Virus record (IMG/VR): IMGVR_UViG_3300032261_000006
Span: 1 to 59,357 of that record
DNA length: 59,357 bases
From: a virus
Taxonomy: Duplodnaviria; Caudoviricetes
Direction: 5' to 3' (one strand)
Positions 1 to 59,357 of this stretch are shown here, one piece after another. How positions within the stretch are numbered: the stretch's first letter is position 1; each line of letters starts with the position of its first letter. A program made the translations under genes and the position numbers. The notes below the pieces were generated by a model. It saw nothing but the letters and a program-made list of their open reading frames with translations, searched no databases and was not told the origin of the DNA.

Positions 1-788
1 TTGGCCTTCCGGATCATATAGCCGGTGCCGGTCAAAGTGCTGAACGACAAACACCAGAAATCCTGCCGGGTAACGCCGCGTTGTGTTTCCACCGGCACGG
101 TCTCGGTATCCGTGGCGCACGGGTCGTCGTCCGTGCCGTAAACTGCACTGGCCACGTCCGAAGCCGTCTCCAATTCCATATACATCGGGTCCGGAAATTC
201 GTCGACCGGCTGATCGTCGCCAAAGTCTAGGAAGGCTCGCAATCTTTTGAAATCATCCCGGCTGGTTTGAATGGCGCTGGTCTGGTGGAGGCCGAGAGCG
301 AAATGGATCATAGCAAAGGTCGGCACCCACACGCCGCACCAGTTTTGCTCACCCAAATAGCGACCATGCACGGCCTCCAGGTCATAATCACCGGCTAGAG
401 ATAACGCCGCAGGCCCCATCGGCACGATCAATTTCGGCTTCATCTTGTTGAGCAGACCCGGCAAATGGTAGGCCGCACATTGCTGTAGTAATTGCCGGTC
501 GCGCTTGGCGTTATAGACCGGCAAGTAACATTTCAAGCAATTGTCCATGCCGACGCCGCCACGCTCCAAACCGGCTAGCGGCAAGTAATGCTTATTCAGT
601 TCATCGGACGCGCCGCCCACGAAGCACCGGCCCTTGGAATTCTCCTCCTTACCAGGACCTTCACCGAGAAACAGCACGCCAGCGCCACCTGGAATGTCAG
701 GCGGAATCGGCGGACAACCTGAGACACGCGGGCAAGTTGGGCACGGCGTCATGCCATATCGCGCCGACCTCTGCTCTGCGTATGTCAT
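1..788 (-). CDS. N-terminal part of a family-4 uracil-DNA glycosylase / 3'-5' exonuclease fusion (continues at 59357, not in ORF track)
   Basis: Manual translation from ATG 788: CPTC, LFLGEGPGKEE..G.CFVG, DNCLKC, QQC and IHF match the UDG4 motifs and Fe-S cysteines. Then ExoI-like ATDTET. The frame is open to base 1 and joins in frame to the 58712..59341 ORF. Confidence 0.85.
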   Translation of the reverse strand, partial: MTYAEQRSARYGMTPCPTCPRVSGCPPIPPDIPGGAGVLFLGEGPGKEENSKGRCFVGGASDELNKHYLPLAGLERGGVGMDNCLKCYLPVYNAKRDRQLLQQCAAYHLPGLLNKMKPKLIVPMGPAALSLAGDYDLEAVHGRYLGEQNWCGVWVPTFAMIHFALGLHQTSAIQTSRDDFKRLRAFLDFGDDQPVDEFPDPMYMELETASDVASAVYGTDDDPCATDTETVPVETQRGVTRQDFWCLSFSTLTGTGYMIRKA

Positions 789-1265: not shown

Positions 1266-1526
1266 TCACAATACTTTGACTCCTTTTGCAATTGATGGTC
1301 TCTCCTCTGGATGCAGCAGGCCCAACACGTAACCGAGCATGAAAGCGCAACCCAAATACCCAGCGCTTTTGGATGCCGCTGCCTGCACCGACATTGGCCT
1401 ATCCGCCAATTCCTCCATCCAAGCAGACATCGATTGCAGGCCCATGCTCTTCAGGAATTCGAGATTCCTTGGGTGTTCACCCAGAACTTCATGAACCAAT
1501 GTCTTGTGCACGTCAGCAACAGTCAC
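1266..1526 (-). CDS. hypothetical protein
   Basis: ATGA-coupled to the ERCC4 gene. Confidence 0.6.
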   Translation of the reverse strand: MTVADVHKTLVHEVLGEHPRNLEFLKSMGLQSMSAWMEELADRPMSVQAAASKSAGYLGCAFMLGYVLGLLHPEERPSIAKGVKVL

Positions 1527-2293
1527 GGTTTAATTCCGTTCCACTCCTGCCAGATTTTCAGTGCTAAGGTCTTGCCAATTCCTGCCACTTTCAACCAGTC
1601 GCTAACTTCAGCATTGGCCATGTTGCGGCCTGTATGGAAATATCCAACCACAGCGGTGGCCTTCTCCCAGCCGATTTTGTAGCACTCCTTGGCCACACGC
1701 TGCTCGAATGTCGGCTTCATCATCTGCACAAATTTCGGCAATTCGGTCCAGAATCCAAGATGCGCCCGGTGCTTGTCGTACTCTTTATCGTTCCACCAGT
1801 GATACAGATTGAGGATGACTTTGGCCGTCTCATCAGCGGTGCTGGTACGCTTGACCGCGATGCCGCCGAATTCTGCCATCGTGGTCAAGTATTTGTCCAA
1901 CTCAGAGTACATGAAGCTTGAACTGTTGGTATTCAGCTTTAGCGGCACCCATTTGTTGCCAAAGTATTCTTCCAATACCCCGTCGATGGGATTTGGTCTG
2001 TAGATGCCCTCGACAATCAGGTACCGGCGCTGATAGAGGTCGCTCATGTTTGGCGCTTGATTGGCAGAGAAGCGGCCCGAATACCGTATCGACTCCATCA
2101 TGCCGCGCACGCGTTTATATTCGATGCCGACGAAGATGCGTTTGCCGTCCGGCCCATTGCCCTCAAAAGCGTAATCCGCTGACGGCAAATCCATATATTC
2201 GACCGGAAGCGGACCGGCACCATCAATGATAGCTTTGATCAACGTCGCTTCGCGCCTATTTACGTGTCGCTCGCGCTGATCAATCAGAATCAA
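1523..2293 (-). CDS. ERCC4/XPF-family structure-specific nuclease
   Basis: IDQRE, ADY, IEYKR, LIVEG motifs and a C-terminal HhH (VAGIGKTLA). TTG start estimated. Confidence 0.85.
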   Translation of the reverse strand: MILIDQRERHVNRREATLIKAIIDGAGPLPVEYMDLPSADYAFEGNGPDGKRIFVGIEYKRVRGMMESIRYSGRFSANQAPNMSDLYQRRYLIVEGIYRPNPIDGVLEEYFGNKWVPLKLNTNSSSFMYSELDKYLTTMAEFGGIAVKRTSTADETAKVILNLYHWWNDKEYDKHRAHLGFWTELPKFVQMMKPTFEQRVAKECYKIGWEKATAVVGYFHTGRNMANAEVSDWLKVAGIGKTLALKIWQEWNGIKP

Positions 2294-2498
2294 GGTGCAT
2301 CCTTTTGTCGTACATGAGCCGTTTCTGCACCAACCGGCACGATTCACAGAGTTCCGGATGGGTGGCCCTCTCGCAAACGTGCGGATAAATAGCGTTGACG
2401 CCGTTCCTTGGTCGTTCCGGCTGCAACACCCTGCTGCCGTCTTCGTTGAACCAGCGTTTCAAGAGCCTGTGTCTGATTACTTCCTTTACTTCTTTCAT
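2280..2498 (-). CDS. hypothetical protein
   Basis: Fills the gap between the ATPase and ERCC4 genes with overlapping ends. Confidence 0.45.
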   Translation of the reverse strand: MKEVKEVIRHRLLKRWFNEDGSRVLQPERPRNGVNAIYPHVCERATHPELCESCRLVQKRLMYDKRMHLDSD

Positions 2499-3292
2499 TC
2501 CCAATCCTTTGGTGAGTTCTCGAACACAGCCGCCGCAACCTCGGCGAAGTTGCAGAGGTCGCCCTCAAATGTCATCCCGGTAACGCTCGGATTCTGTCTG
2601 CAATTCAGGATCCGGACGCCGAAAGTGTTGTCACCTGGGATGAAATAATGCTCCAGGTTGGATTGGATGAGATAAGCGGATTCGCCAAATCCCATGCGAT
2701 CATAAAGGCCTTCCCACGTATCGACGTCACGGCCTTGACTATCCTTCCTCCTGGAATAGACGCGCTTCATGCCGTGAACCAGCACGAGACTTTTGTCCGT
2801 ATCGTATGCCTTGCGGATGAAGCTTTTGTAAAGCTGATTCAGTGATAGATAAGCCTTCTTGATGTCGGCAGCTGGATTGAGTTGCCCGAATTCAGCGAGC
2901 CGCATCAATTCCCACATCTGGTCTGCGCGGTCAAATACTATAGTGCGCACATCTTTGTGGTCGAGCGCTCTAAAGTAAGCATCGCGCACGTTGTCGTAAT
3001 GTTTCTTGTAGCCGCGTTGGTCGGTGCTCCCGTCAAGCGGTGGAATGTTGTAATTAAAACCCCACAACTTGCGGCCTATACGGACGAATTTCTCGATCAC
3101 GCCTTCCAAGCCGATGTCCAAATTGATGTAGGCCACCGGGTCTGGTGCGTTGCGTAACCAGAAGTCCGATTTGCCGGTGCGATCCATACCCTGCGTGCCG
3201 AATAACGCCCGCTGCGGAATGTCGGCTGACGGCAATGTAAATCCAGCCGGTAATGGTGGCACCGGCTGGAATGCGTGTTTCACGAATGCCAT
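2495..3292 (-). CDS. AAA_24/Sak4-like P-loop ATPase (probable recombinase)
   Basis: Walker A GMDRTGKS, Walker B TIVFD, LVLVHG; adjacent to a PD-(D/E)xK nuclease. Confidence 0.7.
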   Translation of the reverse strand: MAFVKHAFQPVPPLPAGFTLPSADIPQRALFGTQGMDRTGKSDFWLRNAPDPVAYINLDIGLEGVIEKFVRIGRKLWGFNYNIPPLDGSTDQRGYKKHYDNVRDAYFRALDHKDVRTIVFDRADQMWELMRLAEFGQLNPAADIKKAYLSLNQLYKSFIRKAYDTDKSLVLVHGMKRVYSRRKDSQGRDVDTWEGLYDRMGFGESAYLIQSNLEHYFIPGDNTFGVRILNCRQNPSVTGMTFEGDLCNFAEVAAAVFENSPKDWE

Positions 3293-3880
3293 CTATTTGG
3301 TCTCCTTTTTTCTAAGCACGACCGGTGCATGTCCTGTAACCATCCGCCAATTTTCTACCAATTCTCGCTGCGAAAATTCCAGACGGTAAAGCCGATATCG
3401 GGCACCGGTCTGCTTATAGTCACCGTTCACCCAGAAAATGTGATACTGCGCCAACCTTGTGCCGTAAGCGTAGCAGTAACTCATCGTTTGCGTAAGCCAC
3501 AGCCATTCGGCCTCTAAATCCTGCTCGCGCCGCATGCTCTTCCAGGTGAGTTTGAATTCGTGCACCACCGGCTCGCCCACCAGATCCACGAAGCTGAGGC
3601 CGTCCGGTGTGAGGTAAATGCCGTCCTTTTTGACTTCACCTGGGCGATAAAGCATGTCAACATGTCTCGGCGCGATCCAAGCTTCCCAGGCGATGCCCAT
3701 GGCCACCCGCGCTTCACTGCCTTCGCTATCGGCTGGCTCGGCGCTTTCCTCTTTTAAAATGTTGGTAACTAGAGCGATGTCCCGCGTGATCTCGGTCAAA
3801 TGCAAACCCGGCGTACGCGCATCGTCGCTAGGACTGCCATACAGAGGAATCCGATACGGTATCGGTGTGATTTTCGGCAT
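3293..3880 (-). CDS. PD-(D/E)xK (Cas4-like) exonuclease
   Basis: G.AWE, TPDG, HEFKLT and QTMSY (QxxxY) motifs. Confidence 0.75.
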   Translation of the reverse strand: MPKITPIPYRIPLYGSPSDDARTPGLHLTEITRDIALVTNILKEESAEPADSEGSEARVAMGIAWEAWIAPRHVDMLYRPGEVKKDGIYLTPDGLSFVDLVGEPVVHEFKLTWKSMRREQDLEAEWLWLTQTMSYCYAYGTRLAQYHIFWVNGDYKQTGARYRLYRLEFSQRELVENWRMVTGHAPVVLRKKETK

Positions 3881-3895
3881 GGCTGTCCTTTACGG

Positions 3896-4057
3896 TCATG
3901 ACTCTTCGCTGATTTTGACGGCGAAAATTTTCAGACCAGGGTTTTGGTCGCGCAAATGTTGAGCATCACCCAACGATTCCACGGCGACACCCACTGTATC
4001 CAGAATCGACTCTTTGACTACTTGTTCATCATTGGATACGACGTACACTGTCGTCAT
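3896..4057 (-). CDS. small hypothetical protein
   Basis: GGAAGGGG RBS before MTTVYV. Confidence 0.5.
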   Translation of the reverse strand: MTTVYVVSNDEQVVKESILDTVGVAVESLGDAQHLRDQNPGLKIFAVKISEES

Positions 4058-4164
4058 ATGAGCCCCTTCCTTAAAACTGGATTGAGGCCCAAGGTCCGCT
4101 CGAACCATTAAAAGCTGGGCCTCAACCCAAGACCGCCCCTAGGCTGAGAAGGCGGCCAATTCGA

Positions 4165-5094
4165 TCAACCGACCTTTATGATTTCATCGCCGCTTATGAC
4201 GTAGCCGTCACGGATACCCATCAAGATCGGTTCAAGTACGTTGTTGTCCTGAAATGCCTTCAACGCCGAATCCCGGACGCCAGCCACCAGACCAGCCGCA
4301 TTCATTGCTTTGAAGACTTCGACGCGACATTTGCTGCGGTTCACTGCCTCGTCGCCCAATACAGTAACGAGGAAGGATTGCAGTATCTCTGAAATGTCGC
4401 CGCTCTGCGTATCCACGGTAGCGCCGTTGACTGGCCTAGCCGGTGCCGCTGCTGCTGCCGCTGCTGCCGGTTTGGCTGCAGCTTTAGCCGGTGCCACTGT
4501 TCCTATTTTCTGCCACGGCAGCCGGTGGATGATTCTCGGCACGGCCAATGTCTTTGGGAAATCGGATGGTTGCGCGTTGACCGTCTGTATCAGATTGGAT
4601 CTGCTGTTGGGAATGTTGCGTTCAGGCTGATTGATGATATGCAGCGCCACGTCCATATTGTCCAGCACCGAGAAGTCGTTTTGCAGTTTGTCCTCAGGGA
4701 ATCCGGCGTTCACGAGGTTGGACAGGTAAAGCCAGATGTTGCTGGATTCGGAAAGCTGAACTGAGCCGGTTAACGACACCAATTGCTTGCCGTCATCGCT
4801 CGGGCCGTATTTGGACGCGTCGCCGAGAGTGTAATACTGATAAAGCACGTCATCGGAGACCGGTTTGCCGCTGCTGAGCCCGACGAACGCTATACGGAGA
4901 AACGGTATCAATTGATTCGCCTTGCCCTCATAATCCCAGAGTACGATGCGATGCTCCAGGCCCCGGTAATCGCCTGCCGGTAAGACGAACCCGCCGCCTT
5001 TCACAAAGTTGCTGAGATTAAAGTTAATCGCTTTGCCCACGTCTGTAGTGGCTGGTTGGGTCGCAGCCGCCGCTGTTCTGTTCGTTGCCGCCAT
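4165..5094 (-). CDS. hypothetical replication-module protein (possibly ssDNA-binding)
   Basis: Strong RBS (AGAAGGA), LPAGDY start of a beta-rich domain, Ala/Lys/Pro linker. Function is inferred from position only. Confidence 0.45.
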   Translation of the reverse strand: MAATNRTAAAATQPATTDVGKAINFNLSNFVKGGGFVLPAGDYRGLEHRIVLWDYEGKANQLIPFLRIAFVGLSSGKPVSDDVLYQYYTLGDASKYGPSDDGKQLVSLTGSVQLSESSNIWLYLSNLVNAGFPEDKLQNDFSVLDNMDVALHIINQPERNIPNSRSNLIQTVNAQPSDFPKTLAVPRIIHRLPWQKIGTVAPAKAAAKPAAAAAAAAPARPVNGATVDTQSGDISEILQSFLVTVLGDEAVNRSKCRVEVFKAMNAAGLVAGVRDSALKAFQDNNVLEPILMGIRDGYVISGDEIIKVG

Positions 5095-5171
5095 TTCTAT
5101 CCTTCTTTCTGGCCGCGCTCTAAGCGGCCCCTGTAACTATCGTATCAGACCGTTGTCTCGTAGTCAATGCC

Positions 5172-6761
5172 TTATTCAAATAGTGGCCTCGGTACCGCAT
5201 TCACAGGCTGATACCGCGCCAGAAACGTCTTGGACAGCAAGTACTTGTATTTCGGAATCGCCCACTCGGCTTGATCATCGACTATGAAATCTTCGCACCA
5301 ATCGTCATCGGCTCGGTCGCCGCGACCGGCCTGCTGTTCTAATTTCTGCGTCATCAGATAAGGACCGTATTCTCTGTCGGCCTCCTGCCGAGCCTTCATG
5401 ACTTTGCTCCTGCCGTCAGGGAATGGCATCTTAGCGTGAATTTGCCACCGGCATTCGTCGTACGGAAAGTCGTAGCCAGTCCCGACAGCCGGTGAGATCA
5501 GTGCGACTGGCGGTATCGTTGCGCCCATCGCCTTGTAACGCTCCACAACCTTAGCCACCGGTTCCTTCCTATTTTTAGCCGACACAATGTCCATGCGGTT
5601 CAAACTCTGGATGATTTCTTCAGCCCGTTCATAGCTGTGCGTATGAATAATGCCATTGCGATTCAGCATCATTCTCGTCATGCTGATTTGATCGATGCGC
5701 AGCAGCCACTGGCTATGATCCTTCTGATGATGAACCATGCGTTGTGTCGGAACCCAATAAATCGGCGCAAGCTGCGGATCGAATACCGGTGGGTGATCCA
5801 CGAATTTGAAATCGCGGCCAGCCACGCCGAGAATGAACATGGTCTTGGGCCGGATGCCAGCGGAGACCAGAACCACTTTGGGAATCTTAAGGAACAGATA
5901 TGACTCCGAGTACCGTCCGACGCGGATCGGATCAAATTGATAGCCCTCGTCGGTCACGTCCCAGACCCAATCCTCAGCTTTAATCAGCGCCAGCATACCC
6001 AATTTTCTTGCCAAATTCTTTAAATGCTGATAGGTCCGCACCCAGGACGGTTTAGGGTCGCGGCTGCTCTGGATGTGCGCCCAGGCTTCCATCATCACAT
6101 TTACCGCAATTGGCCGGACCTCTGCGGCCCATTTCTTCCACACATGATTGGTCAGATCCTTTTCAGGCGGAAATCGTAGCTCGAGCATTTCCTCGATTTC
6201 GTGCACCGAAAGCCTGATTTGAAGGGCGTTGCCCAGCCAATCCGGTGCCGCGTGCGCTTCGTCGAACACGACCATGTTGAACGGGCCAAGACCGTTGCCG
6301 TATTTGTGCTGCATGATCCAAGCTGAGTAGTTGGTCAGGACCAGCCGCGCCGCTCGGGCCGCATTGTAGGCTCTGGTGTATGGGCACTGTGGCGTTCCCT
6401 TTTTTGGACATTTGCCCTGGTGGCCGTCCTCGCAAGTGTAGTCCGGTTTGTAGTCGCACGGATAGGCGGCTTTCCCTCTGATGTCCTTCATGCCGATCGA
6501 CTGGAATTCAGACTGAATCTGGTTCTGCAGGCCCTTGGTTGCCGTAACAAACGCGATGCGGCCCCCGTTTGGATGCAGGATCTGCGCCAATTCTACATAG
6601 AATCCGGTCTTGCCACTCCCGGTGGGCATGTTCTGAGGGTTGAACCGAAGGTCCGATTGAAGGGCCTCCTCCAGTGCATAGGTCTGCGACGGACGCCGCG
6701 TGTGGAATTTACCGGGCAGGCCGGATTCGACCGGCGAGCCCGGTATGGGATACGCCGTCAT
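5172..6761 (-). CDS. DinG/XPD-like SF2 helicase
   Basis: MPTGSGKT, Cys cluster (Fe-S), TNYS, DEAH, SA motif, GYDF, QQAGRGDR. Confidence 0.9.
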   Translation of the reverse strand: MTAYPIPGSPVESGLPGKFHTRRPSQTYALEEALQSDLRFNPQNMPTGSGKTGFYVELAQILHPNGGRIAFVTATKGLQNQIQSEFQSIGMKDIRGKAAYPCDYKPDYTCEDGHQGKCPKKGTPQCPYTRAYNAARAARLVLTNYSAWIMQHKYGNGLGPFNMVVFDEAHAAPDWLGNALQIRLSVHEIEEMLELRFPPEKDLTNHVWKKWAAEVRPIAVNVMMEAWAHIQSSRDPKPSWVRTYQHLKNLARKLGMLALIKAEDWVWDVTDEGYQFDPIRVGRYSESYLFLKIPKVVLVSAGIRPKTMFILGVAGRDFKFVDHPPVFDPQLAPIYWVPTQRMVHHQKDHSQWLLRIDQISMTRMMLNRNGIIHTHSYERAEEIIQSLNRMDIVSAKNRKEPVAKVVERYKAMGATIPPVALISPAVGTGYDFPYDECRWQIHAKMPFPDGRSKVMKARQEADREYGPYLMTQKLEQQAGRGDRADDDWCEDFIVDDQAEWAIPKYKYLLSKTFLARYQPVNAVPRPLFE

Positions 6762-15000: not shown

Positions 15001-15905
15001 GGGTCGGTGAGCACATCTTGAATAATGGCCGGTGGCATTGCGTCGATGATGCCATTACCGAAGACCTTGCGGCCCATGACTTCCCAATTAAAATTTGGCA
15101 TTAGACCGCTGCTGCCAAGATTTAATGACGGAAAAGCTATGTAGGCCAATTCCGAATAGCCGAGAGCTTGATCCGGATGCTTGGACGTTAAATACGTCCA
15201 CGGTGCCTGACCAATCGCCCCATTAAACAGCGACCCGTTGAGGAAAGTTAACGGTGCACCGGAGACGCTGGTGCTGCTGACCCAGAACAAATAATCGACC
15301 AGAACCGTCTTACCAGCATCAGCCGCCGAAAACCCATAGACGCCGAGATTGTTTGTGTATTGACCGGCACCAGGAGCCGACGCCACTTTCAACATCGGCG
15401 TGTTTTGTGTGCCGGTGTAAGTGGTTGATCCAGGTGAACCGTAGTCGTTTACGGTAACCGTGTATGGGTCGAGCCGCACGACGCCGTTGTCTAATTGATA
15501 ATTGGTTCCGTTCCAATGGGACGTATAAGTGCCACCGCCACCAGGAACGACGAAGTACTCTTTGGACCGGTAAATTTGATACTGGTTCTTATCCTGCCAA
15601 ACATTCTGGATTCCGTTTATCTGTCCCTGACAGATGCCGACCATCATCGCCGACGAATAGTTGTATTGCTGGCCGCCGCTGCCGCCTTTGCCTCCACCGG
15701 CACCTTTGCCGCTGCCAAATTTGCCACCGGTGCTCGAAATTGGATTAGCTCGCCAATCGCCGCTCCAGATCAAATTGCCGCTAACTCTGGCCGTGCCGTA
15801 AATCACTTGAATCGGCGTGTTGTACAGGCTAGTCTGCACGCGGTAATCAAGCAACTTCCGATTGACCGCTGCCATCGATGATTTGGGAGGACTAAATAGT
15901 GACAT
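12018..15905 (-). CDS. central tail tip / host-specificity protein (GTA megatron / Phage-tail_3-like)
   Basis: QTSLYNTPIQVIYGTARVSGNLIW, LEPMDLVT, YLRRGVFGT and YFKFTSFN motifs. Confidence 0.85.
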   Translation of the reverse strand: MSLFSPPKSSMAAVNRKLLDYRVQTSLYNTPIQVIYGTARVSGNLIWSGDWRANPISSTGGKFGSGKGAGGGKGGSGGQQYNYSSAMMVGICQGQINGIQNVWQDKNQYQIYRSKEYFVVPGGGGTYTSHWNGTNYQLDNGVVRLDPYTVTVNDYGSPGSTTYTGTQNTPMLKVASAPGAGQYTNNLGVYGFSAADAGKTVLVDYLFWVSSTSVSGAPLTFLNGSLFNGAIGQAPWTYLTSKHPDQALGYSELAYIAFPSLNLGSSGLMPNFNWEVMGRKVFGNGIIDAMPPAIIQDVLTDPLIGPLGWSNADLPAAGTQFGYDASGEVWKYCAANGIFISPVFEGQEKMATRLQEVLEIANANVVWSDGVLKLRSYGDTTAVGNGYQYTPSTQPIYDLDGDDFIPQGGGAWLTVNRPSVRDAYNGVQIEWVNRSSNYVPEPLSDQDDNAVALYGLRMQAPSQYHGITEISVAQQVVGVQLKRSVNIRNQYKFILPAFYALLEPMDLVTITDPFLGINTAPVRILTIEEDDKAQLTVTAEDFPWSTSAPTLHGKQVSSSFGPGYFASPGSINPPIFFQATAEITQDIMYNLLIGLSGGPNWGGCNVHVSIDNTNYTNAGKQTGASTMGVTTASLAAVNDPDTTSTLSVNLIESFGTLQSYSQQQADAFFSLILVDNELMSYQTATLTGTNQYNLTYLRRGVFGTVIAAHNSGAPFMFIDKSVFDWAYQQTDINTTRYFKFTSFNLSGAAEEDISQVATYPVTISIPRIRPYPWYPIVSVPLVTDVTFPNTAAYSTFAMALDYLETDAFNNAIAKVKTSGWAPVNKVNNMTPPTVVTIGTQQLSGNLGDGTYYCAVTSTNLDPTIQLLSCTQSYHSAIVKTVISGAASSGQVLVTVLAWDPASVGYIVYFGTDPNNLVAVTRGFGQPANFTVQWPTVQLSPPGGTFGPPDIQTNLLRMKIFRMGSGGVEYFVVGSVSGNVITTGNSVPGQQAHGVPWTTAQWVGRKVYLYYRASHATFPVLSRTCTTNSSGTVFTGTITVDGTALDTVVQAGDVFIVAAAPSVNNTATSCIFTDSAWNFTTNQWVGKKALIIWGQGTGIGLSRYITANTATTVTTQPFPVNALSNNSVPVIIEPTPIDSMDSDVLSVTTIEGLSVNFSIDTTNLQGASVIVKIVAVAADGTEGFDSLANWRPQYLPGISFSGPMYGGPTASITASNSPYYPQPNSQTIMVDTSGGPVTIFLPPISTWTGLSIIIVKTTSDANAITWNAASGDSFSGLTTGTITGFWASMTFKASGG

Positions 15906-16323
15906 ATGGGCTGAAGAACCTGACAGGTCGAGCCACTAATGGCGGCTGGGTCGCGTCAACGTATTGCACCCCGGTGAGCCAGTGCGCATGAATTAAAAGA
16001 TGTGGCCACTCCAAAACGATGCCCGAATGGCCGTAGACTCTGGCGACGCGAAACATCACGACGTCACCGAGCCGTGGTGGCCCCGGTATCTCGGTCGCAA
16101 ATTCGCGTATGATGTCGAGGTAAATCTCTTCGTTGCGGTGTAAGTGCCAGTCCTGTGATAGAAACGGCGGATCAATCGGCACGCGGAATCCGCACGCACC
16201 GTAAACTTTGATCAGGATGCGACCGCAGTCCACACCCACGCCCTTTAGATCGGCGTTTTGATGGAATGGTGTGCCGATCCAGGTCCGCGCCTCCTCAATT
16301 ACAGCTTGCCGCGCCGCTTCCAA
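15892..16323 (-). CDS. NlpC/P60 tail-tip peptidase
   Basis: EARTWIGTPF, GVDCG, GHSGI, IHAH. TTG start estimated. Confidence 0.9.
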   Translation of the reverse strand: MEAARQAVIEEARTWIGTPFHQNADLKGVGVDCGRILIKVYGACGFRVPIDPPFLSQDWHLHRNEEIYLDIIREFATEIPGPPRLGDVVMFRVARVYGHSGIVLEWPHLLIHAHWLTGVQYVDATQPPLVARPVRFFSPYVTI

Positions 16324-16473
16324 TTCGGTCTCCGGTACACCCCCCGAGGGTAGGACGGCCCCACCGTCCCACCCCCGCCCGCCCTGCCTTCTAGCAGACC
16401 ACATGGACCGGCCCGTAGTCAATATATATGTCGGACCCACGTCGGACGGCCTTCTCGCTTATATACCCAGATC

Positions 16474-16965
16474 TCATGCCATGTCTCTGGCCAACCATCC
16501 GGACAAATTACTGGCCAATTCTGGGTAATGTTCTGCGACCCATTTGTGCCGCGCCTCGCATCCGGCTTTGAGGCACGCGAGCACTTCGCTTGCATCGTTG
16601 GCGTTTACGGCACCTAAAGTTCCCGGCCCAATGGTGCCGTCAGGTGTGACGCCCACGCAATTTTGCAGGATCTTGTTGACGGTCGGTCCTCCCAAATTCA
16701 CGGCCTCATTGAACACTTTCGATGCCAGTTCTGCGTTATCGATCCTGTCGTAGTGGTAATACTCCCAGAATCCCATCCGGTAGAACTCTGTCGCTTGCTC
16801 CTTGGTCAAATTGGCGATGTCGCTATCCCGCCAATGCGGGAAAAATTGTTGGGCCGTCTTCAATGTGACGCCCCATTTAGAAGGCCCACGCCCGTGGTCG
16901 TCTGGGATGAGCTTGCCGCCTTCATCTTTCAATACTTCAGCTACCGCGTCGTCGAATGTTGCCAT
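16474..16965 (-). CDS. endolysin, glycoside hydrolase family 108
   Basis: LKDEGG, D.G.G.SKWGVT, AVNLG, DG.IGP.TL, GWLAR. Confidence 0.88.
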   Translation of the reverse strand: MATFDDAVAEVLKDEGGKLIPDDHGRGPSKWGVTLKTAQQFFPHWRDSDIANLTKEQATEFYRMGFWEYYHYDRIDNAELASKVFNEAVNLGGPTVNKILQNCVGVTPDGTIGPGTLGAVNANDASEVLACLKAGCEARHKWVAEHYPELASNLSGWLARDMA

Positions 16966-24021: not shown

Positions 24022-24911
24022 GGCGCTATCATGGACCTCTGTCTGTAGCGGTTGATGACCAGCATCACTTCATCTGGCATTTCCTTTTCGGAATAGCTGA
24101 TCACTTCGCCGCCGATTGATTGCGACCTCTGGTCTGAATGCTTCGACCTGTTGAACTTCTGCGTTACCAATTCCAAGGCCGCCTGCTTCAGATCCAGCGG
24201 CACCACTTGGAACCCGCCGTTGTAGGAGATAGTGATGTTCTGGTAGCCGCGATTGAAAGCGAAACCACCGCTGAGGTACGGGTAAATCGCTATCGGCAGC
24301 AGGTGCCGGTCCACCATGTAGACTGTTGTGCTGTCGTTTGTCCACCCGGCTGTCACCCCGTCCGACTGTGGCACCGACACTCTGTCGACTACCACTGAAG
24401 CGATGGAATTGATAGGAGTATTCCGCAATACCATCCGGTCTCCGCCGTTGCCGTTGCGGGTTTCTGTGTAACTCGCAGCTTCCAAATTGCGCTCAATCTT
24501 CTGGCGAATCAATGTGGAGGCCGACGTAATGAGCCGCGACAATTTGCGGTCCTGCGTGTCCACTGAGAGATCTAACCAGTCTTTGATTTCCTGTAGCGAG
24601 CACAGATCCAGCGGACTGCCGTACACGACCAGCGGCGACGGATTCACCGTGAAATTGCCGGTGCTAGTCACTGTCACCGTGCCAGTTCCGAGCCATTCGT
24701 AGGTGTGAATTCCGGCGACGGTCGTCACGAAATCGAAATGGAAATTGCCAAGGCTGTCGCGAACGATATTGCCGACTGGCCACGTTTGCGCTGGTTGCGT
24801 GCCGTCAGGTACTTGGACGGTGAGCGTGACGTTGGTCGGATCGACCGGATTGTTGTTGAGATCGGTAAACGCCACGCTTATTCTGGATGTGTCGCCAATG
24901 TTATAGCTCAT
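24018..24911 (-). CDS. head-tail adaptor with N-terminal Ig-like domain
   Basis: LCSLQEIKDWL...D.KLSRLITSAS, YNGGF..VPLDLKQA, INRYR. Confidence 0.75.
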   Translation of the reverse strand: MSYNIGDTSRISVAFTDLNNNPVDPTNVTLTVQVPDGTQPAQTWPVGNIVRDSLGNFHFDFVTTVAGIHTYEWLGTGTVTVTSTGNFTVNPSPLVVYGSPLDLCSLQEIKDWLDLSVDTQDRKLSRLITSASTLIRQKIERNLEAASYTETRNGNGGDRMVLRNTPINSIASVVVDRVSVPQSDGVTAGWTNDSTTVYMVDRHLLPIAIYPYLSGGFAFNRGYQNITISYNGGFQVVPLDLKQAALELVTQKFNRSKHSDQRSQSIGGEVISYSEKEMPDEVMLVINRYRQRSMIAP

Positions 24912-38099: not shown

Positions 38100-38326
38100 T
38101 ATTTGCGAGACCCGATCATTGCAGCCCAAATCATAGCCGCGCCCGTAAAAACGAGAGCGCCTGGACCGGCATAAGGTGTAGGCAAACGCCAGATGCCGAC
38201 GGCAATCGCGCCGATGCCGCCGAAGAAAATGACGTCGAGAAGGAGATTGCGTAATTTGGTGTTCTTGAATTCCACCACTCGCTGGTTGGCTTTGGCCAGT
38301 GCCGTATTGGCTTTATCGGAAATCAT
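38099..38326 (-). CDS. two-TM membrane protein (holin candidate)
   Basis: Two hydrophobic helices; directly upstream of the portal. Confidence 0.55.
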   Translation of the reverse strand: MISDKANTALAKANQRVVEFKNTKLRNLLLDVIFFGGIGAIAVGIWRLPTPYAGPGALVFTGAAMIWAAMIGSRK

Positions 38327-44425: not shown

Positions 44426-44500
44426 GATATCCTTTCGACCAATGGTAGAGTTTACGAGAGCCCCGGCGTCCGGCGTCCTCGTTTGTGTGTCCATATTTTT

Positions 44501-44530
44501 ATTAAAACATGGAGAGCACCGGTTTGTCAA
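44501..44530 (-). promoter_or_regulatory. early-family promoter TTGACA-18-TTTAAT
   Basis: AATACTTGACAAACC..CATGTTTTAAT. Confidence 0.75.
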
Positions 44531-44686
44531 GTATTGGGAAGGTTACGTAAGAATGGGTTTGCCATACCTGTTTTCAGGTTACTTGGTTGTACTTCCCAAG
44601 TTGGTTCCGTGGCCTTGCCCGTTAATTGCAACCGCCCGGCCCTTGCAGTTGACCTTCCATTCAGGTTCCCGGTATCGGTTCCGGTA

Positions 44687-48037: not shown

Positions 48038-48058
48038 CGCGCCTGCCCCCCATTTTCC

Positions 48059-48088
48059 ATTGGAACATGAGAAATTATGGTTTGTCAA
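48059..48088 (-). promoter_or_regulatory. early-family promoter TTGACA-18-TCCAAT
   Basis: AATACTTGACAAACC..CATGTTCCAATGGAAAATGG. Confidence 0.7.
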
Positions 48089-48100
48089 GTATTTGATGGG

Positions 48101-53831: not shown

Positions 53832-54007
53832 GATTTCTTCGCCACCTTCTCCCGTTGTCTGGTAGCTTCTCTTAGCAATTCTCGCGCTAATTGTGTCGCC
53901 TCCACAACGTTTCCCACCTTGGCATCATCCAACCACAATCGGGCAGCGATTTTAGCCACCGCTAAATCTTCCTCATTCCACGCGGGCGGGTCCCATCTTG
54001 GCATCAT
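53828..54007 (-). CDS. 59-aa hypothetical protein (MMPRWDPPAW...)
   Basis: GAGGAGG RBS; last gene of the replication operon. Confidence 0.55.
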   Translation of the reverse strand: MMPRWDPPAWNEEDLAVAKIAARLWLDDAKVGNVVEATQLARELLREATRQREKVAKKS

Positions 54008-54602
54008 TCCTCCTCAGGAAGCCTTCGTCAGTGATGGCTAGACTTTTGGCCCGGTCCAGGTACCGGTGCTCTGCGTATTTCGGAGACCAGCCCCACTCCG
54101 AGCCCTCATAGTGCGCTGAAATGACGGTAGCACGTGACAACGCTGCTGGACAGGTAAACTCTTTGAGCAGCGGCAAGTTATCCGGATGCGGCACCAGACC
54201 GGCATTGACTTCAGCTTTGACCATGCCCTTATCCCAATGGTCGAAGTCCGAAAGTTCAGCTATCGTCACCGGCTTCACGCTGTATTTGGCTAGAATGACC
54301 GCTGTGATGGCATCATCAATATCGCGGTATGGCTTCATTTCGGCCAATCGCTTGATCGGCGCTGTCTGGTCCAAGATGTAAGCTTCAGCAGCGTCATGCA
54401 GCAGGCCCAATTTTGCGAACCGGCTCGGCGTAACTAACGAGAGCCGTATGCAATGTTCAGCCACTGAATAGAACCGCCGCGTGTGACCGGCGTAGCGGCA
54501 AATGTTGGACAAAGCATGCGCAATGTCCGCGATGCAAATCTGCTCAGGTTGCGGATCCAATGGATCGAGCCGCTTGCCGGTAAAAGTCGGTACCCACGTC
54601 AT
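53973..54602 (-). CDS. HD-domain deoxynucleotide phosphohydrolase (YfbR/YfdR-like; DatZ-role candidate)
   Basis: DIAHALSNICRYAGH, YSVAEH, LLHDAAEAY..D...PIK. Confidence 0.85.
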   Translation of the reverse strand: MTWVPTFTGKRLDPLDPQPEQICIADIAHALSNICRYAGHTRRFYSVAEHCIRLSLVTPSRFAKLGLLHDAAEAYILDQTAPIKRLAEMKPYRDIDDAITAVILAKYSVKPVTIAELSDFDHWDKGMVKAEVNAGLVPHPDNLPLLKEFTCPAALSRATVISAHYEGSEWGWSPKYAEHRYLDRAKSLAITDEGFLRRNDAKMGPARVE

Positions 54603-55093
54603 TAGCCCTGGCCTCCTGTGCTACCAAATCCGTTTTCGCCGCGATCACCGGCTGGAAAGTCCTTGGCCGCGACCTCTTGCATGTCCGACGACATCAAATG
54701 ATGGAGAATGAGTTGAATGAGCCGTTCGCCTCTCTTTACTGTGACGCGTTCATCAGTCGGATTGTAAATTGAGGCCCACAATTCGCCGCGATAGCCGTTG
54801 TCGATGATGGCAGTGTTGACTATCAAATTCCGCTTGAAGAATGTGCTGGATCGACCGACGATAGAAGCCCAAGCCCCGTCCGGCAAGGCCACGCGTAAAT
54901 TAGTCGGCACGTTGGCCCAGCATTTCGGGTCGATAGAGACTTGCCTGCTTGCGGACAGATCAAATCCGGCATCGCCTGGATAGTGCCGAATCGGCGTAAA
55001 GTACGGCAATTCCTGGTTTACCGGCGCAAAGAGGATCGTCGGTCTAATCGCTTTCGGGTTCTGGGTCATACTTACTTTCGGGTTCTGGGTCAT
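54602..55093 (-). CDS. dut: trimeric dUTPase-family protein
   Basis: Five motifs: AGFDL, GRSS, IIDNGYRGE, RLIQL, RGENGFGSTG. Confidence 0.9.
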   Translation of the reverse strand: MTQNPKVSMTQNPKAIRPTILFAPVNQELPYFTPIRHYPGDAGFDLSASRQVSIDPKCWANVPTNLRVALPDGAWASIVGRSSTFFKRNLIVNTAIIDNGYRGELWASIYNPTDERVTVKRGERLIQLILHHLMSSDMQEVAAKDFPAGDRGENGFGSTGGQG

Positions 55094-56168
55094 ACTTTAA
55101 TTCCTGTGAGACTAAATTGATGTAATTACTGACGATGAGATCATCCTGGTGCGGCCCGGTGAAGATCATAGTGACTGGTGCGCCAGCCATCACTTCCATT
55201 CGCGCAATATGTTCAACGGTTTTATCGTCTAATTGGTTGTGCTGGCGCACGCTACGGTTAGCGTAACTGATGTAATCGGCACCATGCAGAACTAAGTTTG
55301 TGGGCCGGTTCACCCGGATAGATCGCTTGAACAATTCCCAATCCCATTCACCGACGCGCCGTATCTTTCTGGTGACCGAGGTCAATTCGATCAACGGCAT
55401 GTTAGCAGGGAATCCGGCCCGTTCATGCACGGTTTGCCAATCGATTTCCTTATACATCGGACCGGAATTGCCACCGACGCGGATCGGGTAGGACCGGTAA
55501 ACTGCGTAAATTCGGTCGCATGTTCTCGGCGACAGACCGCATTCGGCCAGGAAAGTGGAGGCTGCAGTGTCCTTGGACGTGCACCACGGATAGTGCGGCA
55601 CGCAGAATAGCGAGAGGCCCAGGCCCTGCGTACCTTCAACGATAATGCGTTTGCCACTGTCGTGTATTTCGTTCAACAACTCCACTGTGTCCGTAATGAA
55701 CGATACCAGATCCGGCACGTCGCGAGCCAAAGTTGCATCACGCATGGCCCGCTTCGAAGCCGTCCACCCGGTGCCGGTCTGCGTGGAGCCGATGCGATCG
55801 CCCAAATTCACGCTGCGCTCCTTCGCTGCTCCGATATCGACGACGGCAGCCATCGGGTCGATCTTCAAAGAAGGTCGAATGTTGATGTCGAGACTGTCCA
55901 ACTGATAAATTTCCTTCCACAGCAATTCAGGATCAACAATAGAGCCAGCGGCGATGACGTAATATAGCCGAGGGTTCCGGCTTGCCACGGCTGATGGGAT
56001 TTGACGCATCACCATGGACTGTTGGCCGAAATACACGGTGTGTCCGGCATTTGGCCCTCCACATCGCACTGCTGCGCCAACGCTTGGATCGTCGCGGCAA
56101 AGTTGGACCACACATTTTCCTTTACCGCTGCTTCCATAAAAACCGTCCACTACGACCGTGACCGGCAT
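55044..56168 (-). CDS. purZ: PurZ-like N6-succinyl-2-amino-dAMP synthetase (PurA paralog)
   Basis: DGFYGSSGKGK (Ser in place of PurA Asp13), PNAGHT, IGST.TG, EGTQG, YPWCTS, RSYPIRVGGNSGP, TSVTRKIRRVG, HGADY. Confidence 0.85.
   Translation of the reverse strand: MPVTVVVDGFYGSSGKGKCVVQLCRDDPSVGAAVRCGGPNAGHTVYFGQQSMVMRQIPSAVASRNPRLYYVIAAGSIVDPELLWKEIYQLDSLDINIRPSLKIDPMAAVVDIGAAKERSVNLGDRIGSTQTGTGWTASKRAMRDATLARDVPDLVSFITDTVELLNEIHDSGKRIIVEGTQGLGLSLFCVPHYPWCTSKDTAASTFLAECGLSPRTCDRIYAVYRSYPIRVGGNSGPMYKEIDWQTVHERAGFPANMPLIELTSVTRKIRRVGEWDWELFKRSIRVNRPTNLVLHGADYISYANRSVRQHNQLDDKTVEHIARMEVMAGAPVTMIFTGPHQDDLIVSNYINLVSQELKYDPEPESKYDPEPESD
55051..55097. repeat. 24-bp tandem duplication in the purZ/dut overlap
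   Basis: CTTTCGGGTTCTGGGTCATACTT(A) x2. Confidence 0.9.
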
Positions 56169-57068: not shown

Positions 57069-57381
57069 GGGTGAAACTCTGCTTAAGCGCCACCAAATCC
57101 GCCACAGCTTGGGCCAGTTCTGATAGTCGAACGTTCTGCCTGTACTGGGGTTCTTTATGAGTAGATTCATACCACAATTCGGCTAATTTGATCACCTTGC
57201 ATTCAACTACACGTAAATCGAAATAGCGGGTGGACTGATGATCGGCCTTCGATTCCGCCCGCAGTTTCTTGTATTCCGGCGAATGAATCGTGCAGTAATT
57301 GTGGCCCTGATATTCGCAGGTGGCATTACGTCTGCACGCGACGCCGTAGGTGGTGGTTGCTGAGCATGATTTGTTCATCAT
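57037..57381 (-). CDS. Zn-finger hypothetical protein
   Basis: CSATT..G..CRRNA......YCTIH; ATGA overlap with the pol stop. Confidence 0.6.
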   Translation of the reverse strand: MMNKSCSATTTYGVACRRNATCEYQGHNYCTIHSPEYKKLRAESKADHQSTRYFDLRVVECKVIKLAELWYESTHKEPQYRQNVRLSELAQAVADLVALKQSFTHGKIQEIETA

Positions 57382-58715
57382 TTCTCTAACTTCCCCCATC
57401 GATCGCCATAAGCGTAGCTCGACTTGATTGGAGTTGCGAATCTAACGCAGTTGGCGACGATCTCTTGACATTGAACCAGACTTTCCTCGATGCTGCGCTC
57501 GTAGCCTTCGACGAGCAATTCGTCGTGAATTTGCAGCAACGGCATAATGGGCAGGCCGCTTACGATGGTATCCCAAATTTCGGCCATGGCCAATTTCATT
57601 ACGGTCTGCGCCGTCGATTGAATTCGGTGTGAATAGGCATACCGGAGACCGGCTTCAACGATGCGCTTATGAACGGATTTCACCTCCGGAATCCAGCGAA
57701 TGCGGCCCGCATAATCCCAAGTATAGCCGTACTGACGAGCCCGACTGTACTGCTCATTCATTGCCGGTCGGATCTCTGAATAGACGCCAAACCAGGAGTT
57801 GATGGCTTCAGCACACTTTATCAGCGGCCATGAATCGACGTAGGCTTGCCGGTCGGCCTCCGTCCAGGATTTGTCGGAAGCTACTAGAATTTGGTCGCGC
57901 AAGCCCTCTTCAGTGATGCCGAAGAGGATACCGAAACCGATACGCTTGGCCGGATACCGGTGCTTCATCTTGTCTAATTTGTCCACCGGTAAATGGAAAA
58001 TGCGGCTGGCCGTCTCCGCATGAATGTCGCCATCCCGCAGGAACGTGTCAATCATCGGAAAGCAATCGGCGTCATCCGCAGCCGTGCGCATTTCGATCTG
58101 CGACAAATCGATAGTGCCCAGCTTCCGGCCCGGTGGTGCGATATAGCCGTCTCGAATTCGTTTACCGAGATCGGTACGGACCGGTTGCGCCATCAAATTC
58201 GGCTCTGATGATGAAATGCGTCCCGGCACCTGTCGCGTGACTCGCAGTGTGGTACGTACGCGGCCATCATCTTGGCTAGCGATGACCGGCAATACATCGG
58301 TATAAGACGTGCGCAACTTGTGTACTTCAGTGAATTCCTGTATCTTTGGGATGCACAGGTGCTGATGTTTGATCGATTCCAGCGCTTCGTCGTCCACTAT
58401 GTACCGTCTTTTGGACGCAACTTTCTTGATGTGCATCGGCTTGAGTTTAAGTCGATCGAACAGCAGAGCCGCGATCTGGTCCGGTGAGCCTAGATTGATC
58501 CGATAATTGGTAAGCCTGCGCACATCCTCGGTCAGCCGCTCTTCCTCTTCCTTCAGGTATCGACTGAATTTGTGAAAATGGTCCTTATCAATGAGGATGC
58601 CATTAGCTTGCATCGCCGCCACCATCGGCATGACGCCCAGGTCCAGCCGCCGAATGTTGGTGGTCGAGGGTTGATCCAGGAGCCGTACACCGTTATAGCA
58701 GGTTTGTTTAATCAT
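57378..58715 (-). CDS. polA: family A DNA polymerase, polymerase domain only
   Basis: NLGSPDQI..LLF, GRISSSEPNL, motif A DLSQIEMR, motif B RYPAKRIGFGILFG, motif C QIHDEL. The ATG at 58715 overlaps the exonuclease stop (ATGA). Confidence 0.92.
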   Translation of the reverse strand: MIKQTCYNGVRLLDQPSTTNIRRLDLGVMPMVAAMQANGILIDKDHFHKFSRYLKEEEERLTEDVRRLTNYRINLGSPDQIAALLFDRLKLKPMHIKKVASKRRYIVDDEALESIKHQHLCIPKIQEFTEVHKLRTSYTDVLPVIASQDDGRVRTTLRVTRQVPGRISSSEPNLMAQPVRTDLGKRIRDGYIAPPGRKLGTIDLSQIEMRTAADDADCFPMIDTFLRDGDIHAETASRIFHLPVDKLDKMKHRYPAKRIGFGILFGITEEGLRDQILVASDKSWTEADRQAYVDSWPLIKCAEAINSWFGVYSEIRPAMNEQYSRARQYGYTWDYAGRIRWIPEVKSVHKRIVEAGLRYAYSHRIQSTAQTVMKLAMAEIWDTIVSGLPIMPLLQIHDELLVEGYERSIEESLVQCQEIVANCVRFATPIKSSYAYGDRWGKLEK

Positions 58716-59357
58716 GCGAGTACAAACTTCCCCGGCCTCATCTGCCGGAATCGCACGGCCAGCCGCCGCAGCATCCACCAGACTCGCAAAGTGGCGTCAG
58801 AGTCACGGCAGGAATAATGCGTCACACGCCGCTTATCCCGCTCCCAGGCTAGTTCAATGCTGGGTACCGGCATCGGCCCAAACATGCTGATCGCGGGCAA
58901 TTTCTCCTCGTCCGACCAGTTGCGCCAGCGGTCGAGTAGGTCCGTTTCTGGGTCCTTTGTGGCGTCTCCGAGCCCTCTCCTTAGTTTCTGAGTGAGGCTC
59001 TGAGGCCGATATAGCCGGTAGCTTCCGTCATCGTTCAGGACAAGGTATTCCTCTGGTTTCGGCCATTCCCATTGGGCCAGCGTCTCGAAATATTCGATGG
59101 CCTTCTGACGGGCAAATGGTCGGACCAGATCCTCGAATTCCTCCATCTTCATTCCGCACAGCCGCCAAGCCAGAACCTTGAGCGATTGCGGCTGGTTGCC
59201 CAGATGATAGGCCCGGACCATGGTGTCGTCAAATCGGCGTAGAAATAGGCCGATCTGCTCATAGACCGGCCCGTCAAACAGGTAATTGTGCACCAGCCAT
59301 AGACCGCGCCTGCGTCTGGCCCATTTCTTATATTCTTCCAAGGCCCGTTCGTTGGCC
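58712..59357 (-). CDS. C-terminal part of the UDG / 3'-5' exonuclease fusion
   Basis: ExoII HNYLFD, DTMV.AY, SLK.LA, ExoIII YSCRDS; frame is open to the window end and joins 1..788. Confidence 0.85.
   Translation of the reverse strand, partial: ANERALEEYKKWARRRRGLWLVHNYLFDGPVYEQIGLFLRRFDDTMVRAYHLGNQPQSLKVLAWRLCGMKMEEFEDLVRPFARQKAIEYFETLAQWEWPKPEEYLVLNDDGSYRLYRPQSLTQKLRRGLGDATKDPETDLLDRWRNWSDEEKLPAISMFGPMPVPSIELAWERDKRRVTHYSCRDSDATLRVWWMLRRLAVRFRQMRPGKFVLA

Follow-up and report, generated by a model that had tools for sequence, protein, structure and literature searches.

A uracil-DNA glycosylase of family 4 fused to a proofreading exonuclease and a separately encoded family A polymerase in a probable 2-aminoadenine phage

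How is a family A DNA polymerase organized if its exonuclease and polymerase domains are encoded in separate genes and the exonuclease is fused to a uracil-DNA glycosylase (UDG), and what does the glycosylase do in such an enzyme? This question is raised by the IMG/VR virus record IMGVR_UViG_3300032261_000006 (Duplodnaviria; Caudoviricetes), which was analyzed over its whole length of 59,357 nucleotides (nt) and is called the window in the following. The reading that we favor as a whole, with a probability of about 0.7, is that of a two-gene replicase composed of a UDG-exonuclease (UDG-exo) and a polymerase (pol) subunit, which originated by an old gene fission and carries an active UDG scanning for uracil, in a probable ZTGC phage, i.e., a phage with 2-aminoadenine (Z) in place of adenine in its DNA.

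The two genes and the ends of the record

On the minus strand, an open reading frame (ORF) of 262 amino acids (aa; 788..3), open at the window start, holds the motifs CPTC, GEGPG and N..KC, a further cysteine, His-Phe-Ala and DTE. A second minus-strand ORF of 214 aa, which enters at 59356 and has its stop codon at 58712-58714, holds HNYLFD and YSCRDSD. A minus-strand gene leaves the window at its start (788..1) and resumes at its end (..58712), as was postulated in a preliminary description made from the sequence alone. The ORF across the join is real, but the 6 nt shared by the ends must be collapsed: window bases 1-6 are repeated as bases 59352-59357, a terminal redundancy to which no strand is assigned. 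A naive end-to-end join duplicates two residues and keeps the frame; after collapsing the 6 nt, the sequence read through the ends (..YMIRKANERALEEY..) agrees exactly with P0001, a database protein of 475 aa. P0001 shows 100% identity to the N-terminal half of the window protein over 262 aa and, by reading of both sequences, one differing residue in the C-terminal half. The 5' part of the gene (1..788, minus strand) comprises the ATG at 788-786, residues 1-262 and two bases of codon 263, and the 3' part (58712..59351, minus strand) the last base of codon 263, residues 264-475 and the TGA at 58714-58712. As the N-terminal stretch MTYAEQRS..CP.CP is kept in homologues, the start at ATG 788 is preferred to gene calls of 438 aa.

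The record is labeled "linear" and 71% complete in IMG/VR. As the ends close, a complete circular or permuted genome is favored over this label, and the window most likely represents a complete phage genome of ~59,351 bp in permuted form. The closure rests on P0001 and P0010 and on contigs that extend beyond the window end, i.e., those of the soil runs X12 and X11, by 678 and 79 nt, respectively. The 90%-identity cluster of P0001 contains a 475-aa member found on 11 contigs, the longest of 59,554 nt, so that the UDG-exo gene is uninterrupted in other assemblies. DNA of this stretch is present in 24 soil runs belonging to 16 studies, 9 of which may be its source, and no RNA runs are listed among them.

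The 475-aa protein consists of a family-4 UDG fold with four cysteines and a DnaQ-type 3'-5' exonuclease. The Pfam UDG family PF03167 matches the N-terminal half with an expectation value (E) of 6.5e-13. An AlphaFold2 model made from P0001 with an alignment of 77 rows has a predicted local distance difference test score (pLDDT) of 95.5 and a predicted template modeling score (pTM) of 0.90, and on this basis the UDG and exonuclease domains adopt a defined mutual position. Residues 9-191 (216..764, minus strand) superimpose on Thermus thermophilus UDG (1ui1) with a Z-score of 21.9 and a root-mean-square deviation (rmsd) of 2.6 Å for 176 of 188 residues (VIA-align), and phmmer against 1ui0 results in E 1.6e-10. 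Family-4 UDGs are described by the motifs A, GE(A/G)PG, and B, HP(S/A). Motif A is found as GEGPG in residues 42-46 (651..665, minus strand) with Glu43; GEGPG, GRCFVG and NCLKC align with GEGPG, GRPFVG and NIVKC of 1ui0, which contain motif A and the pocket residues Phe and Asn. Motif B is His162-Phe163 (300..305, minus strand), aligned with FHPA of 1ui0, where relatives have His-Pro. The four cysteines C16 (743-741), C19 (734-732), C87 (530-528) and C104 (479-477) lie together with Asn83 (542-540) within 477..743 on the minus strand; following the family-4 pattern and their conservation, we take them to be the ligands of a 4Fe-4S cluster. The features of an iron-sulfur-type UDG named in the preliminary description (GEGPG, N..KC and a His followed by Phe) are all present. 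In 77 aligned family members, position 43 is Glu in 66 and Asp in 6, the uracil-pocket residues Phe56, Asn83 and His162 are kept in 67, 76 and 75, and the cysteines at C16, C19, C87 and C104 in 61, 62, 75 and 77, the misses at C16 and C19 being mostly N-terminal gaps.

Residues 199-464 superimpose on the Klenow exonuclease domain (1kfd) with a Z-score of 19.5 and an rmsd of 2.8 Å for 177 aligned residues. The three exonuclease motifs, which had likewise been noticed before, are ExoI (DxE; D227-T-E229, 102..110), ExoII (Nx3(F/Y)D; H284..D289 with N285 and D289, 59290-59273) and ExoIII (Yx3D; Y442..D446, 58816-58802), all on the minus strand, and D227, E229, D289, Y442 and D446 are each conserved in 77/77 members. 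ExoII and ExoIII are ~150 residues apart, which corresponds to a long insert in the exonuclease domain. The C-terminal half encoded in the window alone has no Pfam match; on the homologues P0003-P0006 PF01612 is annotated in precomputed form. The best Foldseek match of the model is 9qhs_A (E 2.3e-12), the cryo-electron microscopy structure of the UDG-PolA of phage phiLo. The global superposition is poor (template modeling score 0.32, rmsd 17.5 Å) and the orientation of UDG and exonuclease is not equated with that in phiLo.

UDG, exonuclease and polymerase are not encoded as one polypeptide, as the stop codon at 58714-58712 separates exonuclease and polymerase. The minus strand reads ..GTA CTC GCA TGA, and the ATG at 58715-58713 opens the next gene with MIKQTCYNGVRLL.., resulting in the ATGA stop/start overlap (58712..58715, minus strand) onto a polymerase-only gene that the preliminary description had proposed. 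This gene (57378..58715, minus strand) encodes a family A polymerase of 445 aa plus stop (PF00476, E 9.7e-76). The Taq large fragment aligns with it (E 9e-56) over the motifs A, B and C including DYSQIELR and HDE, which places on the minus strand motif A with Asp203 at 58109-58107, motif B at 57959-57918 with Phe265 at position B4 (57923-57921), and motif C with His397-Asp398 at 57527-57522.

The split among relatives and the predicted complex

An alignment-based scan of IMG/VR yielded 167 relatives, of which 80 loci were kept for sorting, while the scan with a single protein query had found nothing. Among phage records no close relative was obtained, and tblastn with the N-terminal half resulted in three weak UDG matches. 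The species-genome collection contributed one relative on a contig in a metagenome-assembled genome labeled Patescibacteria, from which the host cannot usefully be suggested. Among 1.84 billion cluster representatives, 3752 matched at E<=0.001, a number that falls to 329 at E<=1e-30. The 150 best matches comprise 110 with up to 600 aa, 2 of intermediate length and 38 with at least 800 aa. Chance is excluded by the homology of the 167 IMG/VR relatives and the 329 representatives at E<=1e-30.

The 80 loci comprise 33 fused, 29 split and 10 probably fused ones, in which the frame is still open at the contig end with pol in the same frame, and 8 without pol, as the contig stops before any. In split loci the exonuclease stop codon is followed by a separate pol ORF, which is adjacent in 6 and separated by 345-4364 nt in 23, measured from the exonuclease stop to the start of the pol match. 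In the five adjacent-split relatives that were inspected, the end of the exonuclease and the start of pol (M..YNGVRLL) are homologous to those of the window, and three of them (L005, L009 and L014) have overlapping stop and start signals.

The 23 split loci with other genes between exonuclease and pol are found among L006-L035, L049 and L074. Ten inserted ORFs were scanned, of which one encodes an HNH endonuclease (L028) and one a cpYpsA SLOG protein (L029), two have weak matches, one of them to DUF1599 in L006, and six have no match. Insertion of a mobile endonuclease may have caused or exploited the fission. In the closest IMG/VR relative (L005:3206-4588) there is an in-frame TGA at codon 413 of the pol match, which could be an error, a pseudogene or recoding. 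The pol ORF L020:13778-16273 has ~830 codons, and the match to the window polymerase ends at residue 366; the ORF may contain a large insertion, perhaps an intein.

These loci bear on the possibility that the split is an artefact or is bypassed, i.e., that an indel broke a single ORF or that a programmed -1 frameshift yields a fusion protein. Upstream of its ATG, the pol frame stays open for 21 codons, and 33 of the 80 relatives are fused, as would be expected in that case. However, contigs of the soil runs X10, X11 and X12 are identical to the window across 58712-58715 (0 differences, 0 gaps), no X XXY YYZ slippery site was seen by eye in the overlap, and in 29 relatives the coding sequence is divided at the homologous position, with entire genes lying between the two parts in 23 of them. 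In view of a split that is old, conserved and common, a frameshift is very unlikely, be it a sequencing error or an obligatory ribosomal event. The sequencing frameshift at 58712-58715 considered in the preliminary description is refuted by the three other runs and the 29 split relatives, and we regard the artefact or bypass explanation overall as extremely improbable.

Trees of both proteins were inferred in quick IQ-TREE searches with support from the Shimodaira-Hasegawa-like approximate likelihood-ratio test (SH-aLRT). The UDG-exo tree comprises 75 of the 80 loci and P0001, five loci being dropped as their UDG or exonuclease match was missing, out of frame or contained a stop. With a support of 99, it sets the 29 split loci together with the window and 3 unclassified loci apart from 39 fused and 4 unclassified ones. 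The pol tree comprises 62 loci and the window, 18 loci without a match across motif B being dropped, and separates 25 split loci and the window from 37 fused ones with a support of 95. As both trees give the same division, one fission (or, less simply, one fusion) followed by joint evolution of the halves is deduced, and the split clade descends from, or is sister to, the fused UDG-PolA family. The split form is old, common among viral metagenomes and apparently undescribed. Acquisition of the window polymerase from elsewhere by a module swap was considered and rejected, as the pol tree places it within the split clade. Its motif B resembles that of the fused clades and not that of the core split clade; the core members (L005-L029) have Leu at position B3 (..C[IV]LASIYD), which is occupied by Phe in the window and the fused clades.

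The association of the two products was examined by complex prediction with alignments of 77 rows for UDG-exo and 37 rows for pol. The pair reached a score of 0.80, the best of three controls 0.00, and the mark of 0.80 is reached by 58 of 80 solved complexes and by 2 of 110 mismatched pairs. The runs share at least 77% of the contacts with a partner pLDDT of at least 86. Confident contacts involve the residues 286-318, 410-418 and 461-468 of the exonuclease and 59-67 and 167-177 of the UDG on one side and the pol residues 16-37, 136-163 and 329-356 on the other. In models of UDG-PolA fusions the UDG is described as wedged between exonuclease and polymerase, touching both other domains (PMC10201439, section 31), a pattern with which the predicted contacts agree. 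The prediction supports binding of the subunits, and the two-subunit replicase suggested in the preliminary description holds in view of the 29 split relatives, the congruent trees and the complex score.

Taken together, the UDG domain would be packed rigidly against the exonuclease in one subunit of a two-gene family A replicase, and the 445-aa pol subunit would be translated from the next gene, coupled via the ATGA overlap. The arrangement probably goes back to a single old gene fission within the phage UDG-PolA lineage, exactly at the boundary between the exonuclease and polymerase domains. As suggested by the prediction, the two products most likely reassemble into the three-domain body of the fused enzymes, in which exonuclease and UDG both touch the polymerase.

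Nucleotide-metabolism genes, motif B and the role of the glycosylase

Downstream of pol on the same strand are four small ORFs without a family match, followed by three nucleotide-metabolism genes. The first encodes a PurZ-type synthetase of 374 aa (55044..56168, minus strand; PF00709, E 6e-43) with Ser13 (56132-56130) at the site of the essential Asp13 of PurA; compared to PurA from P. horikoshii (2d7u) it has ygSSgkgk instead of wgDEgkgs. Ser was reported at this site in 147/147 phage PurZ and Asp in 99% of PurA (PMC12884076, section 24). The best phage matches of the protein are annotated as PurZ and show 33-39% identity, and an archaeal-type PurA model scores it with 274.9, below its own cut-off of 368. 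The second gene (54602..55093, minus strand; 163 aa, PF00692, E 1.9e-26) is Dut-like and a candidate DutZ, an enzyme described as dATP/dGTP/dUTP diphosphatase in the available part of PMC12884076. With the Dut domain of Arthrobacter phage HunterDalle its product shares 40% identity. The third gene (53973..54602, minus strand) encodes an HD-type phosphohydrolase-like protein of 209 aa that matches PHROG 318 (E 1.4e-51) and has no match in Pfam or NCBIfam. Where the PurZ C-terminus and the Dut-like N-terminus overlap (~55044-55093), KYDPEPES and MTQNPK each occur twice; as both termini repeat eight residues, a 24-nt tandem duplication within the gene overlap is indicated. A search for thymidylate-synthase-type genes (PF00303, PF02511) as a sign of thymine modification resulted in no match.

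Motif B of the window polymerase (..GFGILFG) has Phe at position B4, where Taq has Tyr (NFGVLYG). This Phe also aligns with a Phe of the PolA of HunterDalle (Korravirus), which is encoded beside PurZ. HunterDalle is regarded here as related to phage Wayne, and its PolA as a Wayne-like DpoZ. Phe at B4, which is F459 in phiVC8 (PMC8599892), was reported to be unique to both clusters of DpoZ (PMC10201439, section 30). B4 was surveyed in 62 relatives and the window. Tyr is present in 49 records, none of which contains a Ser-type PurZ (0/49), including seven genomes at least 90% complete; conversely, 8 of 8 records with Ser-type PurZ have no Tyr at B4. Asn occupies B4 in a fused clade of 12, seven of which have Ser-type PurZ, including all four complete genomes (4/4), and the other five are fragments of 15-50% completeness. 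Phe is restricted to the window and L058, which is 42% complete and in which no PurZ was found. Few independent events underlie this pattern and the Asn clade counts as one lineage. Within the split clade, Ser-type PurZ is found in the window only. Two records of a split-clade phage (L024/L049) with Tyr at B4 and a PF00709 gene were considered as a counter-example and rejected, as this gene (locus about 15666-16820, plus strand), an auxiliary gene of PurA type, keeps the Asp (GDEGKG).

The Asn-B4 clade with its fused UDG-exo-pol is a candidate for a further class of Z-DNA polymerases. Its motif B reads ..GFGILNL, Leu replacing the following Gly. The records with Ser-type PurZ (GSEAKGK) are L036, L047, L053, L056, L059, L064 and L072, with complete genomes of 40-45 kb; further members are L045, L055, L057, L063 and L070, and the PurZ genes are those in L086-L089.

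The replicase appears to be encoded in one operon with the PurZ-type synthetase, the Dut-like enzyme and the HD phosphohydrolase, and its motif B would have changed from Tyr to Phe at B4 as in both known DpoZ groups. On the basis of this operon and of Phe at B4, the phage probably replicates ZTGC DNA. The adaptation to Z would be recent and would have its place in the nucleotide pool and the pol subunit rather than in UDG-exo.

The UDG domain itself is, judged from its residues, most likely catalytically active. In the SP15-like UDG-PolAs of YerA41 and phiLo, the only UDG-PolAs that have been studied by experiment, UDG activity was reported in the accessible sections of PMC13697223 (Missoury et al.): the 5' template strand is led to the UDG, where dU flips close to E53 and H178; the enzymes remove dU but not C5-modified dT, and the abasic site is bypassed mainly with dA. 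E53 of phiLo is named as catalytic (PMC13697223, section 19), and from its motif we infer that it is the equivalent of Glu43. As the corresponding Glu and His are kept, scanning of the template for uracil is the best-supported inference: in analogy to the SP15-like enzymes, the UDG would scan the template for uracil beside the polymerase, and editing at the end of the primer would fall to the exonuclease.

Several observations weigh against this reading at its different levels. With regard to the complex, the halves of a split gene were scored and PolA structures, including a UDG-PolA, are solved, so that the score may reflect likeness to solved polymerases; the trees come from quick searches and the window is placed on a long branch. 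With regard to Z, the assignment as PurZ is uncertain: among solved structures the PurZ-type protein matches archaeal PurA best, with 183 bits, followed by PurZ0 with 149 and phiVC8 PurZ with 112, and the NCBIfam PurZ model (NF038379) scores 200.1 bits with a cut-off of 300. In addition, Phe at B4 is considered unlikely to explain the choice of Z over A in the part of PMC10201439 that deals with it. With regard to repair, no PolX, ligase or AP (apurinic/apyrimidinic) endonuclease was found among the 27 of 73 window ORFs that were scanned, in which SP15-like phages differ. With regard to catalysis, the motif-B His is followed by Phe in only 2 of the 77 members and by Pro in 75; the stretch after N..KC is unlike that of stand-alone family-4 UDGs, the Pro/Arg-rich stretch of 1ui0 not being kept; and the NCBIfam model UDG_fam4 (TIGR00758), which is still the best UDG model, scores 59.3 bits, below its cut-off of 125.3. 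On account of these three features the glycosylase could be weakened or retargeted.

Alternatively, the UDG domain would be a structural module only, a processivity factor or scaffold without glycosylase activity. A role in processivity was proposed earlier for the polymerases of SPO1 and T5 (accessible text of PMC3201878) and an inactive UDG for N4-like PolAs (PMC10201439, in part); the rare His-Phe and the low UDG_fam4 score fit to such a role, as do the UDG residues that contact the pol subunit in the predicted complex. Against it stands that the pocket residues Glu, Phe, Asn and His and the four cysteines are kept in 61-77 of the 77 members, while the N4-like enzymes lost their pocket residues, as described in the available sections of PMC10201439, and that the UDG-PolAs which keep them are active (PMC13697223, section 19). 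A purely structural UDG is therefore unlikely in our judgment, though worth consideration, and the active, uracil-scanning enzyme is preferred.

The preliminary description had gone further and suggested that the editing subunit may police base content such as uracil, deaminated Z or misincorporated A. With regard to Z, this would mean that the UDG is retargeted to the purines of Z-DNA and removes misincorporated adenine or damaged Z. Ser-type PurZ accompanies UDG-PolA types in the window and, as a separate lineage, in the fused clade of seven records, the window has the rare His-Phe variant, and PF03167 co-occurs with contigs carrying the Z deoxynucleotide (dZ) according to the accessible part of a preprint (10.1101/2025.10.22.683976). 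On the other hand, a PF00709 gene is found in none of the six split-clade genomes that are at least 90% complete, so that the architecture is not tied to Z, and the pocket residues are those of uracil enzymes. To our knowledge, no family-4 UDG acts on purines, and deamination of Z at position 6 yields guanine, a normal base that no glycosylase could police. Policing of Z or A is not supported since the split architecture is older than the Z genes and for the most part not tied to their presence and since the trait that tracks PurZ belongs to the pol subunit; the PF00709 gene of L024/L049 is a PurA and the enzymatic precedent concerns dU only. Such a retargeted UDG thus appears very improbable, and scanning of the template for uracil, in analogy to the SP15-like enzymes, is the likelier role.

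Comparison with known polymerases and further features of the window

UDG-PolA fusions, for which the preliminary description had correctly named phage SPO1 as precedent (PMC10201439, in part), are known from SP15-like (phiLo and YerA41, 9qhs), SPO1-like and N4-like phages and have the same order of an N-terminal family-4 UDG, a 3'-5' exonuclease and a PolA polymerase domain. The SPO1-like and SP15-like enzymes keep the catalytic UDG residues as here. They differ in that the chain is cut here into two genes after the exonuclease and that the context is PurZ and not hypermodification of thymine. Compared to the SP15-like enzymes, the 445-aa polymerase would, judged from its length, have no room for the large inserts and the C-terminal domain.

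A fission at the exo/pol boundary with adjacent and overlapping genes was described for the S-SBP1-like split PolA of T7-like cyanophages, and its predicted complex rebuilds the fused fold as here (PMC10201439, section 32). However, it probably represents a different PolA lineage: the best solved relatives of the window polymerase are Taq, Klenow and Bst, and no T7 polymerase is found among the 60 listed of 71 matches in the PDB. Furthermore, the exonuclease subunit of the window carries a UDG, and its clade is large and old, often with genes inserted (HNH, cpYpsA).

The DpoZ enzymes (phiVC8-like, 7pbk, and Wayne-like) are PolAs encoded beside PurZ-type and Dut-like genes as here, and the order pol, PurZ, Dut is that of Korravirus HunterDalle. 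Phe at B4 and the long ExoII-ExoIII insert are shared, and the exonuclease of 7pbk matches that of the window with a Z-score of 17.9. In contrast, the window polymerase scores 60.8 with a cut-off of 500 for the phiVC8-like (NF038380) and 53.7 with a cut-off of 350 for the Wayne-like NCBIfam model (NF038381), its identity to PolAs of Arthrobacter phages is only 25-28%, and the enzyme is split and equipped with a UDG. By these sequence scores, it is placed outside both known DpoZ families. Stand-alone family-4 UDGs (1ui0; 4zbx from S. tokodaii), which with UdgX are the nearest known enzymes of this kind, share the fold (Z-scores of 20-22), GEGPG, the Phe after GR, N..KC, the motif-B His and the four cysteines, whereas the window domain is fused to an exonuclease and has Phe instead of Pro after the His.

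Published accounts already exist of UDG-PolA fusions and their activity, of exo/pol fission among T7-like phages and of DpoZ. In the accessible text of PMC10201439, PMC13697223 and its preprint, and the metaGPA preprint, whose supplementary sequences may hold such cases, no separately encoded UDG-exo forming a large clade, no UDG-type PolA as replicase of a PurZ phage and no B4 changes beyond the two DpoZ groups are described. The exo/pol fission was reported as the first in a small T7-like group (PMC10201439, in part); the present clade extends fission of family A polymerases beyond this group, with a large environmental clade making a glycosylase-plus-proofreading subunit apart from its polymerase. 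The 2025 preprint (10.1101/2025.10.22.683976) statistically links the UDG domain to dZ contigs, for a reason that its authors could not name, and the locus described here may provide a concrete gene for this link, as the UDG of some PurZ phages would be part of the replicase itself. The pair would constitute a natural system for studying the coupling of proofreading, base excision and synthesis on separable subunits and a candidate enzyme for the production of Z-DNA.

Published work on Z-DNA recognizes two lineages of PolA-type DpoZ (PMC12884076, in part). A more far-reaching interpretation, which we offer tentatively and consider somewhat doubtful, is that the split replicase is a third, independently evolved Z-DNA polymerase and the enzyme of the fused Asn-B4 clade a fourth, that loss of Tyr at B4 is a recurrent signature of Z-DNA replication, the residue being Phe in both DpoZ groups (phiVC8-like and Wayne-like) as well as in the window and Asn in the fused clade, and that the built-in, template-scanning UDG may serve to exclude uracil from DNA whose nucleotide pool the Dut-like enzyme has altered.

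Further features of the window are located away from the replicase. Upstream of the UDG-exo gene, and belonging to its operon, are minus-strand genes (1523-6761) for a nuclease of ERCC4 type, a protein that is Sak4-like/AAA_24 and a DNA helicase (ResIII/Helicase_C_2). Residues 535-647 of the portal protein (35382-38129, minus strand; 915 aa, PF04860) form an inorganic-pyrophosphatase-like InPase domain (PF18823, E 4.8e-22). Within an ORF of 1151 aa (24908-28363), positions 25100-26481 on the minus strand hold 9-10 degenerate copies of a unit of 23-52 nt, spaced by multiples of 57 nt; this part of a large structural protein is built of repeats. Finally, two families of conserved intergenic repeats (..GTTTGTCAAGTATT..; ..TCTTGACAAAC..GGTTTAATGG) are located at 44496-44542, 48054-48100 and 48685-48731 and at 49804-49844 and 50980-51020, respectively, and are likely phage promoters or operator sites of the early region.

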